NCBI RefSeq assembly: GCF_016903815.1
Contig: NZ_CP069973.1
Origin: Escherichia coli
Lineage (GTDB): Bacteria > Pseudomonadota > Gammaproteobacteria > Enterobacterales > Enterobacteriaceae
Strand: one strand, 5' to 3'
Length of the DNA stretch: 64,000 nt
Shown here: piece after piece, positions 1 to 60,596 of the stretch
Position numbering within the stretch: the first letter of the stretch is position 1
Layout: every line of letters starts with the position of its first letter
The notes under the pieces: model-generated
What the model was told of the DNA's origin: nothing
The model's database searches: none
The model's input: only the letters and a program-made list of their open reading frames with translations
Made by a program: the position numbers and the translations under genes

Positions 1-2638
1 CTTCGATGCTTCTTCGCCGAGCGTTTGCGGTGCCTGCAGCATCTGGGTAATTACCGCCTGCTGGATTTGCGCAAACTCATCTGGCTTCATCGCTCGCAAT
101 TTTGCCTCTGCGGTTGGGAAAAACGCCTTGTAACGCTCCCACAAGAATGAAGGCTGTTTATCATTGCTTTGCAAAAGGAAGCCCATGCCCCACTGACGCC
201 CCACGCTCATTGGAAACGCAAACACGGCATAGCCCAATTGTTCTTCGGTACGCAACTGATTGTAGAACCACGGCTGTACGATCTGCCCCAACAGAGAGCT
301 ATAGGCTGAGCTGGTGTATTCATCGTAGCCAGTCGGTACAAATACCGCTGCCAGTGCGGAGTCGGTGCTGTTACCGGCTTTTTCAAAGATGACGGATTGT
401 TTTTTATCGACCACTACATCTTTGTTTCGACACCACTCTGAACCATCAGCGCCCAACTGTTTTTGCACATCGCGTGCCAGCGTTGTTGCCTGGGCCTCGG
501 TCATGTTGCCGATAACCATAAACTCTGGTCGAGCCCCTGATTTTAAGGCGTCGCGATAGGCCAGCACCTCTTTCAACGTAATGGAGGGCAAAATTTTACG
601 CCGTTCATCTCGCGAGAAGTACGGCACTTGCGAGAGCATCTGCGCGGGCATAATCGCCTGCTCAAACGCTTTACCCTTTTCTGCGGAATCCATCATCTGG
701 TTATACCAGGACTTCGCCTGCTCAAGCTGATCTTCCGTGGCGGTATAGCTAAAGTAGCCTTCCAGCAATGCCTGGAACAGCTGCGGCAGACGCTGGGTGT
801 AACCATTAGCATTAACCATAAGGCCGTTGTTAGCGTTGGTGGAAAAACTTATGCCACCAACCGACGCCTGGTTGCTTAACTGATCAAGCGCCAGCCCTGC
901 GAGATAATCATTGAGCGCAAACATCACCTGATTGCGGGCGCTGTCCATGGCTTTCGGATTACGCAAAATCAGGCTGACATCAGCTTTGGGCTCGCTGGCA
1001 AAATAACGGCTTGGCGCATACACCACGCGCAGATTCGACTCATCAACAATCAGCTCTGGATGGTCGTATTTCTTCTCTGACTTAATCAGCGAGAAATCAT
1101 CAGGAATATAAGGGTTAAGCTCTGGCAAAGAGAGCGCAATGTCGGCGGCTTTTTTCTGCCAGTCGGCGAAAGTTTGTGCGCTGATTTTATCGACCTGATA
1201 CGGCGCATCGACAAAGTAAGCCGTTTTGTTGTGCGGCTCTTTCGGGCTGATATACCAGATACGCGCATTCTGCGGCGTCATCATCGCCAGACGTTCCTTT
1301 ACTGCTTTAGCATCGTACCGATCGGCAATATTGACTGCATCCAGCGTATGCTCAACAGGAACGCGAATCATGGTATCTGCCAGCCATTCGACGTAATCCA
1401 TATCACGGGTGATCGACGGATAACGGAAGTCGATATCCAGCACATTCGCCAGTTCATCGAAGTATTGTTTATCAATGCCTTTTTCACGTAACAGATTGAG
1501 ATAGCTAAAAATTGCCGCCACAACCTGATCGCGATTAGCCAGGCCTTTATCGGTTAAAGACGCAGAGATCGCTAATACGCCGCTGTTGCCGTTGACGATA
1601 GGATCGGAGTTGGCGCTAATGCCCTCAACTAATCCCTGCTTTTGCAGCCAGTCAGAAAGTGTACCTGGGCTGCGATTGCCAATCAGATAGGTAATCAATT
1701 CATCGGTTTTACTACGGAACTTCGCTGAGTTGTTATCGATGCGAAACTCAACGCGCAACACTTTACGCGGCAGCGCAGGGACGTAATGAATGATAATGCC
1801 CTTTTGCGCGTCGGTGACTACCGGCACGGTGATTTCCGGTTTTTTGCTCTCTTTGTTCGGCACGCGACCAAAGGTGTCCGCCGCCATTTTTGCCAACTCC
1901 GGCAGCGGTTTATTGCTGTAAATAACCGCCTTCATCAGATTGGCGGAATAGTACTTCTCGTGGAAATCTTTCAGCGCCTGCTGCACCGGATTACCAGGTT
2001 TGTCGCTTAAAGTTTCGAGGTTACCACCAGAAAACTTTGAACCGGGGTGTGCCGGGTTAATGGTTTCTGCGCTGACCTGCGCCATGCGCATCCCGTCACG
2101 CGTACGCGCCATGGTTAATTCGGCATTCACTGCATTACGTTCACGTTCGGCGTATTTCTTGTCGAGCAAGGGTTCTGCAATAGCGTCCGCCAGGCGGTCT
2201 ACCGCACCGGGCAAGGCGTCGTTCTCAACTTCCAGATAGAAAGCCGTGCGATACGGTGCCGTGCTGGCATTGTGACTGCCGCCGTGCATTTTGAGATATT
2301 CGGCCAGACTGTCAGCCTGCGGGTACTTTTTCGACCCCATCAGACTCATATGTTCAAGGTAATGTGCCAGCCCCTGGTACGCCTCGGGATCTTCCAGCGA
2401 CCCAACGGGCACCACCAGCGCCGAGAGCGATTTAACCGCCTGCGGATCAGAAACCAGCAAGACCACCATACCGTTATCCAGACGTATAGCCTGATACTGG
2501 CGGTTATCTTTATCACTTTTACGGATGGTTTCCTGAATCGGCTGCCATCCCGTTTCTGCCTGACTTAAGGGTGCCCAAAGGGCAACAAACAACAATAATG
2601 CTTTGAACCAGGTGCTGCGGGGCATTCACGGACCTCAT
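1..2638 (-). CDS. ptrA: Protease III (pitrilysin), N-terminal ~879 codons; 3' end lies beyond the window start
   Basis: Reverse-strand translation from the ATG at 2636-2638 gives MPRSTWFKALLLLVALWAPLSQAETGWQPIQETIRKSD..., a signal peptide plus the Protease III N-terminus. It sits immediately downstream of recC, as in the E. coli recC-ptrA-recB-recD cluster. It is absent from the ORF track because its stop lies outside the window. Confidence 0.85.
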
Positions 2639-19843: not shown

Positions 19844-19931
19844 AAAAAAAACCTGCGCATCCGCGCAGGTTGGTGCAAGAGACAGGGTACGAAGAGCGTA
19901 CCGAATAATCTCACCAATCAATACCTCTGGG
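19844..19931 (-). ncRNA. omrA: OmrA small RNA (RygA)
   Basis: The minus-strand sequence CCCAGAGGTATTGATTGGTGAGATTATTCGGTACGCTCTTCGTACCCTGTCTCTTGCACCAACCTGCGCGGATGCGCAGG followed by a U-run matches OmrA, with a terminator hairpin, in the aas-galR intergenic region. Confidence 0.85.
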
Positions 19932-20045: not shown

Positions 20046-20128
20046 AAAAAAAAACCTGCGCATCTGCGCAGGCTGGTGTAATTCATGTGCTCAACCCGAA
20101 GTTGACTTCACCTATCAATACCTCTGGG
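20046..20128 (-). ncRNA. omrB: OmrB small RNA (RygB)
   Basis: The minus-strand sequence CCCAGAGGTATTGATAGGTGAAGTCAACTTCGGGTTGAGCACATGAATTACACCAGCCTGCGCAGATGCGCAGG followed by a U-run shares its 5' and 3' ends with OmrA. Confidence 0.85.
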
Positions 20129-38207: not shown

Positions 38208-39725
38208 TTATTTTACCGGACGCATCGCCGGGAACAGAATAACGTCGCGGATGGTATGGCTGTTGGTGAACAGCATTACCATACGGTCGATGCCAATCCC
38301 CAGACCTGCTGTCGGCGGTAAGCCATGTTCCAGTGCGGTAACGTAATCTTCATCGTAGAACATCGCTTCGTCGTCACCTGCGTCTTTCGCGGCAACCTGA
38401 TCCAGGAAGCGTTGCGCCTGATCTTCCGCGTCATTCAGCTCGCTAAAGCCGTTACCGATTTCACGACCACCGATGAAGAACTCAAAGCGGTCTGTGATTT
38501 CCGGGTTAATGTCGTTACGACGCGCCAGCGGAGAAACTTCTGCCGGATATTCAGTAATGAAGGTCGGCTGAATCAGATGTGCTTCTGCCACTTCTTCGAA
38601 GATCTCGGTAACGATACGGCCCAGACCCCAGCTCTTCTCAACGTGGATACCGATAGATTCAGCAATCGCTTTCGCAGAGTCGAAGTTATCCAGATCCGCC
38701 ATGTCGGTTTCCGGGCGATATTTCTTGATCGCTTCACGCATGGTCAGTTTTTCGAACGGTTTACCGAAGTCCAGCGTCACGTCGCCGTAGGTCACTTCCG
38801 TCTTACCGAGAATATCCTGTGCCAGAGTACGGAACAGCGATTCGGTCAGCTCGATCAGATCTTTGTAATCTGCGTAAGCCATGTAGAGTTCCATCATGGT
38901 GAACTCTGGGTTATGACGTACGGAGATACCTTCGTTACGGAAGTTACGGTTGATTTCGAATACACGCTCGAAGCCACCGACCACCAGACGCTTGAGGTAC
39001 AGTTCCGGCGCGATACGCAGGTACATGTCGAGATCCAGCGCGTTATGGTGGGTGATAAACGGACGCGCAGCGGCACCGCCAGGGATCACCTGCATCATCG
39101 GCGTTTCAACTTCCATAAAGCCGCGGTTCACCATGAACTGGCGAATACCAGAGAGGATCTGCGAGCGCACTTTAAAGGTGTTACGGGATTCATCGTTAGA
39201 GATGAGATCCAGATAACGCTGACGATAGCGCGCTTCCTGATCCTGCAAGCCGTGGAATTTATCCGGCAGCGGACGCAGTGCTTTGGTCAGCAGACGCAGC
39301 TCGGTACAGTGGATAGACAGTTCGCCGGTTTTGGTTTTGAACAGTTTACCTTTCGCGCCGAGGATGTCACCGAGGTCCCATTTTTTGAACTGCTCGTTGT
39401 AAACGCCTTCCGGCAGATCGTCACGGGCAACGTACAGCTGAATGCGGCCACCCACATCCTGCAGGGTAACGAAAGACGCTTTACCCATAATACGGCGGGT
39501 CATCATGCGGCCAGCAACGGCGACTTCGATGTTCAGCGCTTCCAGTTCTTCGTTCTCTTTACCGTCGAATTCTGCGTGCAATTGGTCAGAGGTATGATCG
39601 CGACGGAAATCGTTCGGGAAGGCAATCCCCTGCTCGCGCAGGTTCGCCAGCTTCTCACGACGCGTTTTCAGTTCATTGTTAAGATCGACTACCGCGTCAG
39701 CGCCCTGTGCGTGTTGTTCAGACAT
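38208..39725 (-). CDS. lysS: Lysine--tRNA ligase (constitutive)
   Basis: 505-aa [47 protein letters not shown]. Confidence 0.94.
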
Positions 39726-39734
39726 GTTGGTTCC

Positions 39735-40833
39735 TCATAACCCTGCTTTCAAACTTGCTTCGATAAATTGATCCAGGCTGCCGTCCAGCACGGCCTGCGT
39801 GTTGCGGGTTTCTACCCCGGTACGCAGATCTTTAATGCGGGAGTCATCAAGGACATAAGAACGAATCTGGCTGCCCCAGCCGATGTCGGATTTGTTATCT
39901 TCCATCGCCTGTTTCTCGGCATTTTTCTTCTGCATCTCCAGTTCATAAAGCTTCGCTTTCATCTGCTTCATGGCCTGGTCTTTGTTCTTGTGCTGGGAAC
40001 GGTCGTTCTGGCATTGGGTCACGATCCCGGTTGGGATGTGGGTAATACGCACCGCAGATTCGGTACGGTTAACGTGCTGACCGCCCGCGCCGGACGCGCG
40101 ATAAACGTCAATGCGCAGATCCGCCGGGTTGATTTCGATATCAATATCATCATCAACTTCCGGGTAAACAAACGCAGAGCTGAACGATGTGTGGCGACGA
40201 CCGCCGGAGTCAAACGGGCTTTTACGCACCAGGCGGTGAACGCCAGTTTCTGTACGCAGCCAGCCGTAAGCGTAATCGCCGGAGATTTTGATCGTCACGG
40301 ATTTAATACCCGCCACTTCACCTTCCGACTCTTCGATGATTTCAGTTTTGAAACCACGCGATTCTGCCCAGCGCAGATACATACGCTCAAGCATGCTCGC
40401 CCAGTCCTGTGCTTCCGTACCGCCAGACCCCGCCTGAATATCGAGGTAGCAGTCGGCGCTGTCATATTCGCCAGAGAACATACGGCGGAACTCAAGCTGC
40501 GCCAGTTTTTCTTCCAGGGCGTCGAGTTCAGCAACGGCTTCGTTAAAGGTTTCTTCGTCGTCAGCTTCTACAGCCAGTTCCAGCAGACCAGAAACATCTT
40601 CCAGCCCCTGTTTCATTTGGTCGAGAGTGTCGACAACGGCTTCGAGGGAGGAACGCTCTTTACCCAGCGCCTGTGCGCGTTCGGGTTCGTTCCAGACATC
40701 CGGCTGTTCCAGCTCGGCGTTTACTTCTTCCAGACGCTCTTTCTTGGCGTCGTAGTCAAAGATACCCCCTAAGAACGTCGGAGCGTTCCGTGAGGTCCTG
40801 AATGCGATTATTTACCGGATTAATTTCAAACAT
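39735..40833 (-). CDS. prfB: Peptide chain release factor 2, requiring a programmed +1 ribosomal frameshift
   Basis: The first 25 codons [25 protein letters not shown] are read from the ATG at 40831-40833 and end at an in-frame UGA. The +1 frame continues as the 293-aa track ORF (39735..40616 region), with GGQ-containing RF2 domains. Confidence 0.92.
40750..40775 (-). promoter_or_regulatory. prfB +1 frameshift site (internal Shine-Dalgarno AGGGGG followed by CUU UGA C)
   Basis: The minus strand reads CGTTCTTAGGGGGTATCTTTGACTACGAC: an SD-like AGGGGG, a 3-nt spacer, the slippery CUU and an in-frame UGA followed by C. Confidence 0.85.
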
Positions 40834-40923
40834 GGTCTGATTTCTTTTATTGAGCTAGTCAAAATGCGGTGATAAGAGCGGGATTGTACCCAATCCACGC
40901 TCTTTTTTATAGAGAAGATGACG

Positions 40924-42657
40924 CTAAATTGGCCAGATATTGTCGATGATAATTTGCAGGCTGCGGTTGCCGCGAAACTCGTTGATATCGAGCTTGTAAG
41001 CCAGTTGCACTTCGCGCACGCCGTTATCCGGCCAGAGGGCGGTATCGACATTAAAAGCAATACCATCCAGCAGTGGACCGCCGCCGACCGGTTCGACCAT
41101 CACCTTCAAATGACGTTCGCCCACCAGCCGCTGTTGCAGCAGACGGAAATGACCGTCAAACAGCGGCTCCGGGAACATCTGCCCCCACGGGCCAGCATCG
41201 CGCAGCAACTGCGCCACTTCCATGGTCATTTCGGCCGGGCTTAACGGACCGTCTGACACCACTTCGCCTTGCAATAGCGAAGGGTCCAGCCACTCTGTAA
41301 CCAGTTCGCCAAACCGTTGTTGAAAGAGTTCGAATTTATCCTCTTCCAGCGACAAACCCGCCGCCATCGCATGACCGCCAAACTTCAGTATCATGCCAGG
41401 GTAGAGTGTGTCTAATCGCTCCAGTGCATCACGCATATGCAGCCCCTGAATGGAGCGACCTGAACCTTTCAGCGTACCATCACCTGCTGGCGCAAAGGCG
41501 ATAACCGGACGGTGAAAACGCTCTTTGATGCGCGAAGCCAGAATACCGACAACGCCCTGATGCCATTCGGGGTGATACATTGCCAGCCCGCCGGGTAGCG
41601 TGTCGCGACTTCGCTCCAGTTTCTCGCACAGGGTCAGGGCTTCAACTTGCATTCCTTGTTCGATCTCTTTTCGCGTCTGGTTTAGCGCATCGAGTTCATT
41701 TGCCAGCACGCGCGCTTCGCCGATGTTGTCGCACAGCAAGAGCGCCACACCGACGGACATATCGTCCAGTCGTCCGGCAGCATTGAGACGTGGCCCCAGC
41801 GCAAAACCTAAATCGCTGGCGGCGAGTTTTTGTGCATCACGGTTTGCCACTTCCAGCAGCGCTTTAATCCCTGGACGGCACTTTCCGGCACGGATGCGAC
41901 TCATCCCCTGCCAGGTCAGAATGCGATTATTAGCGTCCAGCGGCACGACGTCCGCCACTGTTCCCAGCGCGACCAGATCCAGCAGTTCTGCCAGGTTAGG
42001 AATTGCGATGCCACGCTCATAAAACCAGCCCTGATCGCGCAAAAAGGTGCGCAGCGCCAGCATCAGATAAAACGCCACACCCACGCCTGCCAGTGATTTC
42101 GACGGGAAATTACAGTCGCGCAAGTTAGGGTTAATGATCGCTTCCGCTGCGGGTAATGTTTCGCCCGGCAAATGGTGATCGGTAACAATAACCGGAATGC
42201 CCAACGAGCGAGCGTGTTCAACGCCCGCATGGGAGGAAATACCGTTATCCACCGTGACAATTAACTGCGCGCCACGGGCATGGGCCTGATCGACTACTTC
42301 CGGGCTTAAGCCGTAACCGTCTTCGAAACGGTTTGGTACCAGATAGTCGATATTGCTGCAACCAAGCGAGCGCATCGCCAGCACGCTTAGAGCCGTGCTG
42401 GTCGCGCCGTCGGCATCAAAATCACCAACCACAATAATCCGCGTTCCTTCGCGAAAAGCGTTGTAAAGGATCTCAACGGCCTTTTCGACGCCGCTCAGTT
42501 GCTGCCAGGGCAGCATACCTTTAACACTGCGTTCCAGTTCTTGCGCACTGCGTACTCCCCGGCTGGCGTATAAACGGCGCAGCAAGGGAGGCAATTCAGC
42601 GGGCAAGTCTGCCGTTTCATCGACTTCACGGCGACGAAGTTGTATCTGTTGTTTCAC
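40924..42657 (-). CDS. recJ: Single-stranded-DNA-specific 5'-3' exonuclease RecJ
   Basis: 577-aa ORF; MKQQIQLRRREVDETADLPAELPPLLRRLYASRGVRSAQELE and the DHH motifs. Confidence 0.93.
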   Translation of the reverse strand: MKQQIQLRRREVDETADLPAELPPLLRRLYASRGVRSAQELERSVKGMLPWQQLSGVEKAVEILYNAFREGTRIIVVGDFDADGATSTALSVLAMRSLGCSNIDYLVPNRFEDGYGLSPEVVDQAHARGAQLIVTVDNGISSHAGVEHARSLGIPVIVTDHHLPGETLPAAEAIINPNLRDCNFPSKSLAGVGVAFYLMLALRTFLRDQGWFYERGIAIPNLAELLDLVALGTVADVVPLDANNRILTWQGMSRIRAGKCRPGIKALLEVANRDAQKLAASDLGFALGPRLNAAGRLDDMSVGVALLLCDNIGEARVLANELDALNQTRKEIEQGMQVEALTLCEKLERSRDTLPGGLAMYHPEWHQGVVGILASRIKERFHRPVIAFAPAGDGTLKGSGRSIQGLHMRDALERLDTLYPGMILKFGGHAMAAGLSLEEDKFELFQQRFGELVTEWLDPSLLQGEVVSDGPLSPAEMTMEVAQLLRDAGPWGQMFPEPLFDGHFRLLQQRLVGERHLKVMVEPVGGGPLLDGIAFNVDTALWPDNGVREVQLAYKLDINEFRGNRSLQIIIDNIWPI

Positions 42658-44959: not shown

Positions 44960-45632
<673 letters not shown>

Positions 45633-60412: not shown

Positions 60413-60596
60413 ATTTCTCTGAGATGTTCGCAAGCGGGCCAGTCCCCTGAGCCGATATTTCATACCACAAGAATGTGGCGCTCCGCGGTTGGTGAGCATG
60501 CTCGGTCCGTCCGAGAAGCCTTAAAACTGCGACGACACATTCACCTTGAACCAAGGGTTCAAGGGTTACAGCCTGCGGCGGCATCTCGGAGATTCC
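60413..60596 (+). ncRNA. ssrS: 6S RNA (regulator of sigma70 RNA polymerase)
   Basis: ATTTCTCTGAGATGTTCGCAAGCGGGCCAGTCCCCTGAGCCGATATTTCATACCACAAGAATGTGGCGCTCCGCGGTTGGTGAGCATGCTCGG... matches 6S RNA, downstream of zapA and upstream of fau. A -10-like TAGAGT lies just upstream. Confidence 0.88.

Follow-up and report, generated by a model that had tools for sequence, protein, structure and literature searches.

The window analysed here, a 64,000-nucleotide stretch of an Escherichia coli chromosome, carries on its minus strand a complete gene for RF2 (peptide chain release factor 2), prfB, placed between recJ and lysS. The gene is divided between two reading frames, and its parts and immediate neighbours are as follows, in the order of transcription.

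40924..42657, minus strand: recJ, upstream of prfB; dsbC and xerD also lie upstream
39735..40833, minus strand: prfB, peptide chain release factor 2, complete, 365 aa, complement(join(39735..40757,40759..40833))
40759..40833, minus strand: frame-0 segment of prfB, 25 codons, from the ATG (40833..40831) to codon 25, CUU (40761..40759)
40765..40770, minus strand: internal Shine-Dalgarno-like element AGGGGG, read as AGG GGG (Arg22-Gly23) in frame 0; seen in the sequence and described in PMC12421855
40762..40764, minus strand: 3-nt spacer UAU, the Tyr24 codon, seen in the sequence; predicted to stand in the E site at the moment of the shift
40758..40761, minus strand: slippery CUU U, seen in the sequence, with codon 25 CUU (Leu, 40761..40759) as the predicted P-site codon and the U at 40758 as the base skipped
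40755..40758, minus strand: RF2-specific stop UGA (codon 26, 40758..40756) and next to it C (40755), so that the stop stands in a UGAC context, weak for termination
39735..40757, minus strand: +1-frame segment of prfB, 340 codons and stop, from GAC26 to Leu365, with the stop UGA at 39737..39735
38208..39725, minus strand: lysS, lysine--tRNA ligase, starting 9 nt past the prfB stop

The 9-nt gap between prfB and lysS indicates that the two genes are probably co-transcribed. A promoter and terminator scan of 39600..41100 gave matches no more numerous than in shuffled sequence. The 90-nt recJ-prfB spacer (40834..40923) contains an inverted repeat, AAGAGCG-GGATT ... AATCC-CGCTCTT, at about 40875..40905, whose core (40881..40896) is the sole terminator-like hairpin of that scan and was scored on the plus strand; TACAAT occurs in the loop on the strand of prfB. 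This repeat could be the terminator of recJ and/or part of the promoter region of prfB.

E. coli strain 7/2 (NZ_CP023820.1) is 100% identical to the window over the prfB region and 99.995% identical across 41.4 kb, while identity to K-12 MG1655 is 97.8% across 6 kb. Over the 41.4 kb, one substitution (45249) and one 1-nt indel (about 27995) separate the window from strain 7/2. The substitution, G in the window and A in 7/2, falls in ygfX (44960..45373, minus strand). In the window this gene reads through its 137 aa uninterrupted and is intact; in 7/2 it is annotated as a pseudogene with an internal stop. Elsewhere in the window, matches at Rfam gathering level comprise 6S RNA (ssrS, 60413..60596, plus strand), a SIB antitoxin RNA (61245..61395, plus strand), the tandem OmrA/OmrB sRNAs (19844..19931 and 20047..20128, both minus strand) and a tRNA; 6S, SIB and OmrA/OmrB are expected in this part of the E. 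coli chromosome.

A mechanical list of open reading frames divides prfB in two, a 25-aa ORF at 40756..40833 and a 293-aa ORF at 39735..40616 (both minus strand), the latter beginning at an internal ATG, Met73. An initial annotation, made from the sequence before this analysis, had pointed to this split with its 293-aa downstream frame, and the split is confirmed, with the 25-aa ORF also present in the list. The ATG at 40833 is the first start codon downstream of the upstream in-frame stop, and the premature in-frame TGA is codon 26. Skipping of the single T/U at 40758 joins the 25 frame-0 codons to the 340-codon +1 frame and yields a product of 365 aa. The check proposed for the site was to translate it conceptually, shifting by +1 at CUU-UGA, and to align the product to RF2; carried out here, it returns a match from end to end that includes the L25-D26 junction.

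The identity of the fused product as the class I release factor RF2 is evident from several comparisons. It scores 525.9 bits on the NCBIfam model TIGR00020 (prfB), for which the cut-off is 370, with residues 12-362 covered, and RF1 models score it below their own cut-offs. Both the PCRF and RF-1 Pfam domains are present, PCRF covering residues 31-219, and the SPF and GGQ motifs are found at residues 205 and 250. Alignment with the E. coli RF2 chain of PDB entry 1GQE extends over residues 1-365, the one difference being a Leu here where 1GQE has Val, and alignment with 1ML5 and other entries that carry the K-12 sequence likewise extends over 1-365 with one difference. The PDB RF2 chains contain the L25-D26 junction that arises from the +1 shift.

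These same comparisons bear on the idea that the locus encodes two separate products and is not recoded at all, namely a 25-aa peptide and an N-terminally truncated RF2 initiated at Met73. The 293-aa ORF does have an ATG start in the ORF list, as this explanation would have it. However, residues 26-72 of the +1 frame match RF2 structures as well as the prfB and PCRF profiles, and frame-0 residues 1-25 belong to the PDB RF2 chains. The +1 frame opens at 40811, 18 codons ahead of GAC26, and between that point and Met73 it holds no ATG, GTG or TTG; it encodes the remainder of RF2 and offers no place near the site at which translation could begin separately. No SD-like purine run occurs in the 20 nt that precede Met73 (TTGTCGACACTCTCGACCAA). 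Full-length 365-aa RF2 with the frame-0 N-terminus is reported in the literature and is implied by the PDB sequences. Independent initiation at Met73 can accordingly be given almost no credence, and the reading of prfB as one coding sequence with a frameshift is retained.

The elements of the site are found together, and only once. The initial annotation placed an internal SD, a CUU and an in-frame UGA followed by C between 40750 and 40775 without stating the strand; the motif AGGGGGTATCTTTGAC has a single match within the 64 kb, on the minus strand at 40755..40770, and all of these elements are read there directly. The codons are AGG GGG TAT CTT TGA C, preceded by CTT. The slippery CTT Leu codon lies directly before the stop, giving CTTT; AGGGGG (40770..40765) lies 3 nt upstream of CTTT and 6 nt upstream of the stop, separated from the slippery codon by the spacer (40764..40762); the C at 40755 follows the stop immediately in the weak TGAC context; and the codon after the shift is GAC (40757..40755), read as Asp26. 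The spacing and all the elements by which the E. coli site is defined in PMC12421855 are thus found here, as are the upstream 25-codon frame (ORF 40756..40833) and the SD-like element, the absence of either of which from a re-sequenced copy had been named beforehand as grounds for abandoning the assignment.

In dinucleotide-preserving shuffles of the window, 0.02 matches to AGGGGGTATCTTTGAC are expected by chance even when up to 2 mismatches are allowed. The bare heptamer CTTTGAC shows no enrichment in the window (7 observed versus 8.9 expected). Since this count is not unusual, the signal is the full composite motif together with its place within prfB, and the slippery-stop heptamer alone is not diagnostic.

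The predicted duplex between the site and the 3' end of E. coli 16S rRNA, a sequence taken from general knowledge and lying outside the window, has an energy of -12.6 kcal/mol, and 9-mers of the AGGGGG region rank by predicted pairing among the strongest anti-SD binders of the prfB mRNA. The best 9-mer value in prfB, -10.9 kcal/mol, is reached by ~0.1% of the 9-mers sampled from the window. A second internal 9-mer, GGAAGGUGA, at prfB nt 508-516 from the ATG (about 40318..40326 of the window, minus strand), has a predicted anti-SD pairing of -10.9 kcal/mol, equal in strength to that of the frameshift-site element. It has neither a slippery codon nor a stop close by, and may simply be a translational pause site.

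When the entire window was compared with Rfam at gathering thresholds, nothing matched at the frameshift site, and folding of 151 nt around it gave a z-score of -1.21, with 26 of 200 shuffles folding equally well or better. The weak folding score and the lack of an Rfam match are consistent with a linear signal read by the ribosome, with no added structure indicated.

Full-length RF2 might in principle also be obtained without a ribosomal frameshift, by RNA-level repair if RNA polymerase slipped on the G5 or T3 run, or by readthrough of the UGA in frame 0. The short homopolymers GGGGG and TTT at the site would give slippage a substrate, but at 3-5 nt they are short for an event of that kind during transcription. 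Moreover, the conserved RF2-specific stop, the C that follows it and the fixed 3-nt SD spacing fit only a ribosomal event. Readthrough in frame 0 soon runs into more stops (codons 58, 91 and 97), and that frame does not encode RF2. Published reporter and in vitro work places the event on the ribosome (PMC12421855, PMC2377451), and together these points make repair or readthrough highly improbable by comparison with a +1 ribosomal shift. A shift in the -1 direction was considered as well and was rejected, since the -1 frame closes after 11 codons.

Conservation of the site within the species is nearly complete. The 1.4-kb prfB region is present in one copy each in 5,425 of 5,426 complete E. coli genomes, the remaining one being without a match, and in 5,418 of the 5,425 the 115-nt stretch that takes in both start codon and site shows an identity of 99% or more. 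In one E. coli genome the sole copy of the prfB region is located on a record with a plasmid label. Public annotation treats the gene as recoded: in RefSeq the identical sequence of strain 7/2 is a two-piece joined prfB CDS with the note "programmed frameshift", and K-12 b2891 is likewise a joined CDS.

The weakest match to the site among the 5,425 genomes is that of BH100 substr. MG2014 (NZ_CP024650.2; prfB at 1208..2305 of the extracted locus, L002), which has GGGG instead of GGGGG in the G run at about 1272. Its prfB is a single uninterrupted frame (...VLRGIFDYD...) and a plain CDS per PGAP. The variant is a singleton, being the only exact match to the GGGG form among the 5,425 genomes, and it represents either a rare natural allele that is in frame and unregulated, or a homopolymer assembly error. 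Thus either the interruption is not strictly obligatory or the record carries a homopolymer error.

Across species, a scan for the exact 16-mer with one genome per species gave at least 120 loci. Among the matches listed, 117 of 120 sit at the same place in an RF2 homologue, and the +1-fused products of these 117 are 42-99.7% identical to E. coli RF2. The layout is also shared, with a frame-0 leader usually of 20-27 codons (counted from the first ATG) and, in loci stored in full, a +1 ORF typically of about 340 codons. Among the host lineages are Gammaproteobacteria, Betaproteobacteria, Rickettsiales, Bacteroidota, Nitrospirota and a deltaproteobacterial MAG. The site is therefore found at the orthologous position both in the E. 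coli set and in 117 of the 120 listed loci, with the proviso that a set chosen by an exact 16-mer shows the association of the motif with prfB and not an unbiased rate of conservation.

The flanks of the site were compared in the 114 loci that combine RF2 homology with flanks of the full 90 nt; the comparison serves as background only, since the search itself fixed the 16 motif columns. At third codon positions of the flanks the majority base reaches a frequency of no more than about 0.3-0.5, so that the nucleotides of the site are identical while the surrounding coding sequence has drifted freely. A broader view is given by a survey of 12,753 genomes (PMC12421855), in which 64% have a premature prfB stop, TGA in >99% of those, and in which prfB sites almost without exception conserve AGGGGG, the spacing, CTTT and the C after the stop.

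Of the three listed loci outside the 117, one ends five codons past the site and two lie outside RF2 genes. The latter two (L042, 636..651, and L063, 7239..7254, both plus strand) have +1 ORFs of 19 and 11 codons and no frame-0 start upstream. They are plausibly chance matches, a handful of which are conceivable in a collection of ~300 Gb.

It is against this distribution that a broken gene has to be weighed, that is, a prfB pseudogene or a sequencing or assembly error caused by an accidental and functionless 1-nt insertion. The 25-aa and 293-aa pieces of the mechanical ORF call are what such an accident would produce, and one E. coli assembly with a G run shorter by 1 nt does have a single frame. 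That in-frame variant is, however, a singleton, whereas essentially every one of the 5,425 E. coli genomes has the interruption, in its only copy of prfB, and it recurs at the same position in 117 RF2 genes of other species (of the 120 loci listed). The break also coincides exactly with the SD-spacer-CUU-UGA-C composite, for which 0.02 matches are expected by chance, and the RF2 sequence in both frames matches the full-length protein. A pseudogene or sequence error is on these grounds extremely improbable.

The site is, with near certainty, the canonical autoregulatory programmed +1 ribosomal frameshift of E. coli prfB, and nothing in the sequence contradicts this reading. The sequence elements and their spacing, both frames, the identity of the product, the conservation and the public annotation are established here. 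RF2 identity, the published elements, the RefSeq note and the conservation bear out the initial annotation in calling this the classical prfB recoding site; its recommendation that prfB be annotated as one CDS with a frameshift, and not as a pseudogene, is correct and already standard in RefSeq.

The actual shift, its dependence on the level of RF2, and what the SD-like element and the E site contribute to it are taken from published experiments on the identical sequence. For this E. coli sequence a +1 shift with an efficiency inverse to the RF2 level has been reported (PMC12421855, PMC2377451); the definitions of the site and the autoregulatory mechanism are given in PMC12421855 and the effects of the E site and SD in PMC2377451.

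On this basis, ribosomes would initiate at the ATG at 40833, translate 25 codons and then pause. At that point the P site would contain CUU with its peptidyl-tRNA-Leu, and the A site UGA-C, a poor terminator because the C after the stop makes termination inefficient (PMC12421855). When RF2 is abundant it would recognise UGA26, the 25-residue peptide would be released and no RF2 would be produced; when RF2 is scarce the pause would be longer. AGGGGG, 3 nt upstream of CUU, would pair with the anti-SD of 16S rRNA, and this pairing at an unusually short spacing would destabilise the E-site tRNA on UAU and promote its loss. Frameshifting efficiency drops with rising E-site stability, and UAU is among the fast-release E-site codons (PMC2377451). 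The tRNA-Leu would then re-pair from CUU to UUU, translation would go on in the +1 frame with GAC, and RF2 would be completed to its 365 aa. Since the choice between termination and shift would be set by the abundance of RF2, RF2 is expected to limit its own synthesis. Proteomic evidence for a junction-spanning peptide was sought in PMC10861913, in which prfB figures only as a known case that is cited.

A further suggestion is that the 25-residue peptide is functional in its own right, or that the choice between termination and frameshifting also tunes lysS, in which case translational coupling or polarity would let the level of RF2 feed into lysS expression. The gene layout is the sole support for these ideas, and they are considered very unlikely.

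The frameshift in prfB has been known since 1985-86. The E. coli +1 site is credited to Craigen and Caskey (1986), as that work is cited in PMC10861913 and PMC12421855. The site is thus already known; it is the textbook bacterial +1 programmed frameshift, intact in this strain, and it offers nothing new. Its practical value is that of a positive control, for a naive ORF caller splits prfB and the recoding site is recognisable from raw sequence, while the NCBI pipeline already annotates this exact sequence correctly.

The nearest known system is prfB of K-12 MG1655 (b2891), with which this copy shares the gene itself, the recJ-prfB-lysS order, the 1099-nt gene length and the two-piece CDS. The whole frame-0 segment and the frameshift site are identical in the two, and none of the 10 nucleotide substitutions that separate them falls in the first 207 nt or in the site. 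Nine of the substitutions are synonymous; the tenth, at prfB nt 737 (G here, A in K-12), gives Ala246 in place of Thr246 of K-12 and is the only amino-acid difference. RF2[A246T] of K-12 has been described as defective (PMC7530605), and the RF2 of this strain is thus the fully functional form. The autoregulatory set-point may in consequence differ from that of K-12, with a termination/frameshift balance that may be lower than K-12 measurements imply, and frameshift efficiencies from K-12 are not to be carried over uncritically to this Ala246 strain.

The window also holds other recoding sites, in two insertion elements. An IS1 at 34894..35591 (minus strand), between actS and uacT, has insA at 35316..35591 and insB at 34894..35397; its -1 frameshift motif TTAAAAAACTC (A6C) lies at 35334..35340 (minus strand) and is labelled 'programmed frameshift' by RefSeq in the near-identical 7/2. 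A truncated IS3-family element at 31886..33117 (plus strand) has orfA (31886..32194) and orfB (32191..33117) overlapping at ATGA, with a -1 frameshift motif CCAAAAG whose A4G is at 32157..32161 (plus strand). This element adjoins tRNA-Gly(CCC) at 33860..33933 (minus strand) and a partial ygeQ remnant at 33071..33664 (minus strand). The distance from tRNA-Gly(CCC) to idi/lysS is a few kb here and presumably tens of kb on the K-12 map, which suggests that the tRNA-associated ETT2 island may have been largely deleted in this lineage. Like prfB, the IS1 and IS3 transposase genes fuse overlapping frames at a slippery run and are recorded by RefSeq as a 'programmed frameshift'; unlike prfB, they shift in the opposite direction (-1) and on A-rich runs. 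Their frameshifts set the ratio of two proteins, with no sensing of a stop codon by their own product and no feedback loop.

A further comparison is with the eukaryotic antizyme OAZ1, in which a +1 shift at an in-frame UGA serves as a feedback sensor. OAZ1 differs in that it senses the polyamine level instead of a release factor, employs a downstream RNA structure and has no SD:anti-SD pairing, and it is not homologous to prfB. It is listed as a case of +1 programmed frameshifting in PMC2377451.

The prfB sites of bacteria at large (Baranov et al. 2002; Prince et al. 2025, PMC12421855) have the same AGGGGG, 3-nt spacer, CTTT, TGA and C, and the exact 16-mer is common to RF2 genes of several phyla. 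Lineages without the prfB site include Actinomycetota and Mycoplasmatota, and a few bacteria use TTTTTGA or TAA (PMC12421855). The site described here shows no difference from the common form and corresponds to its type example.
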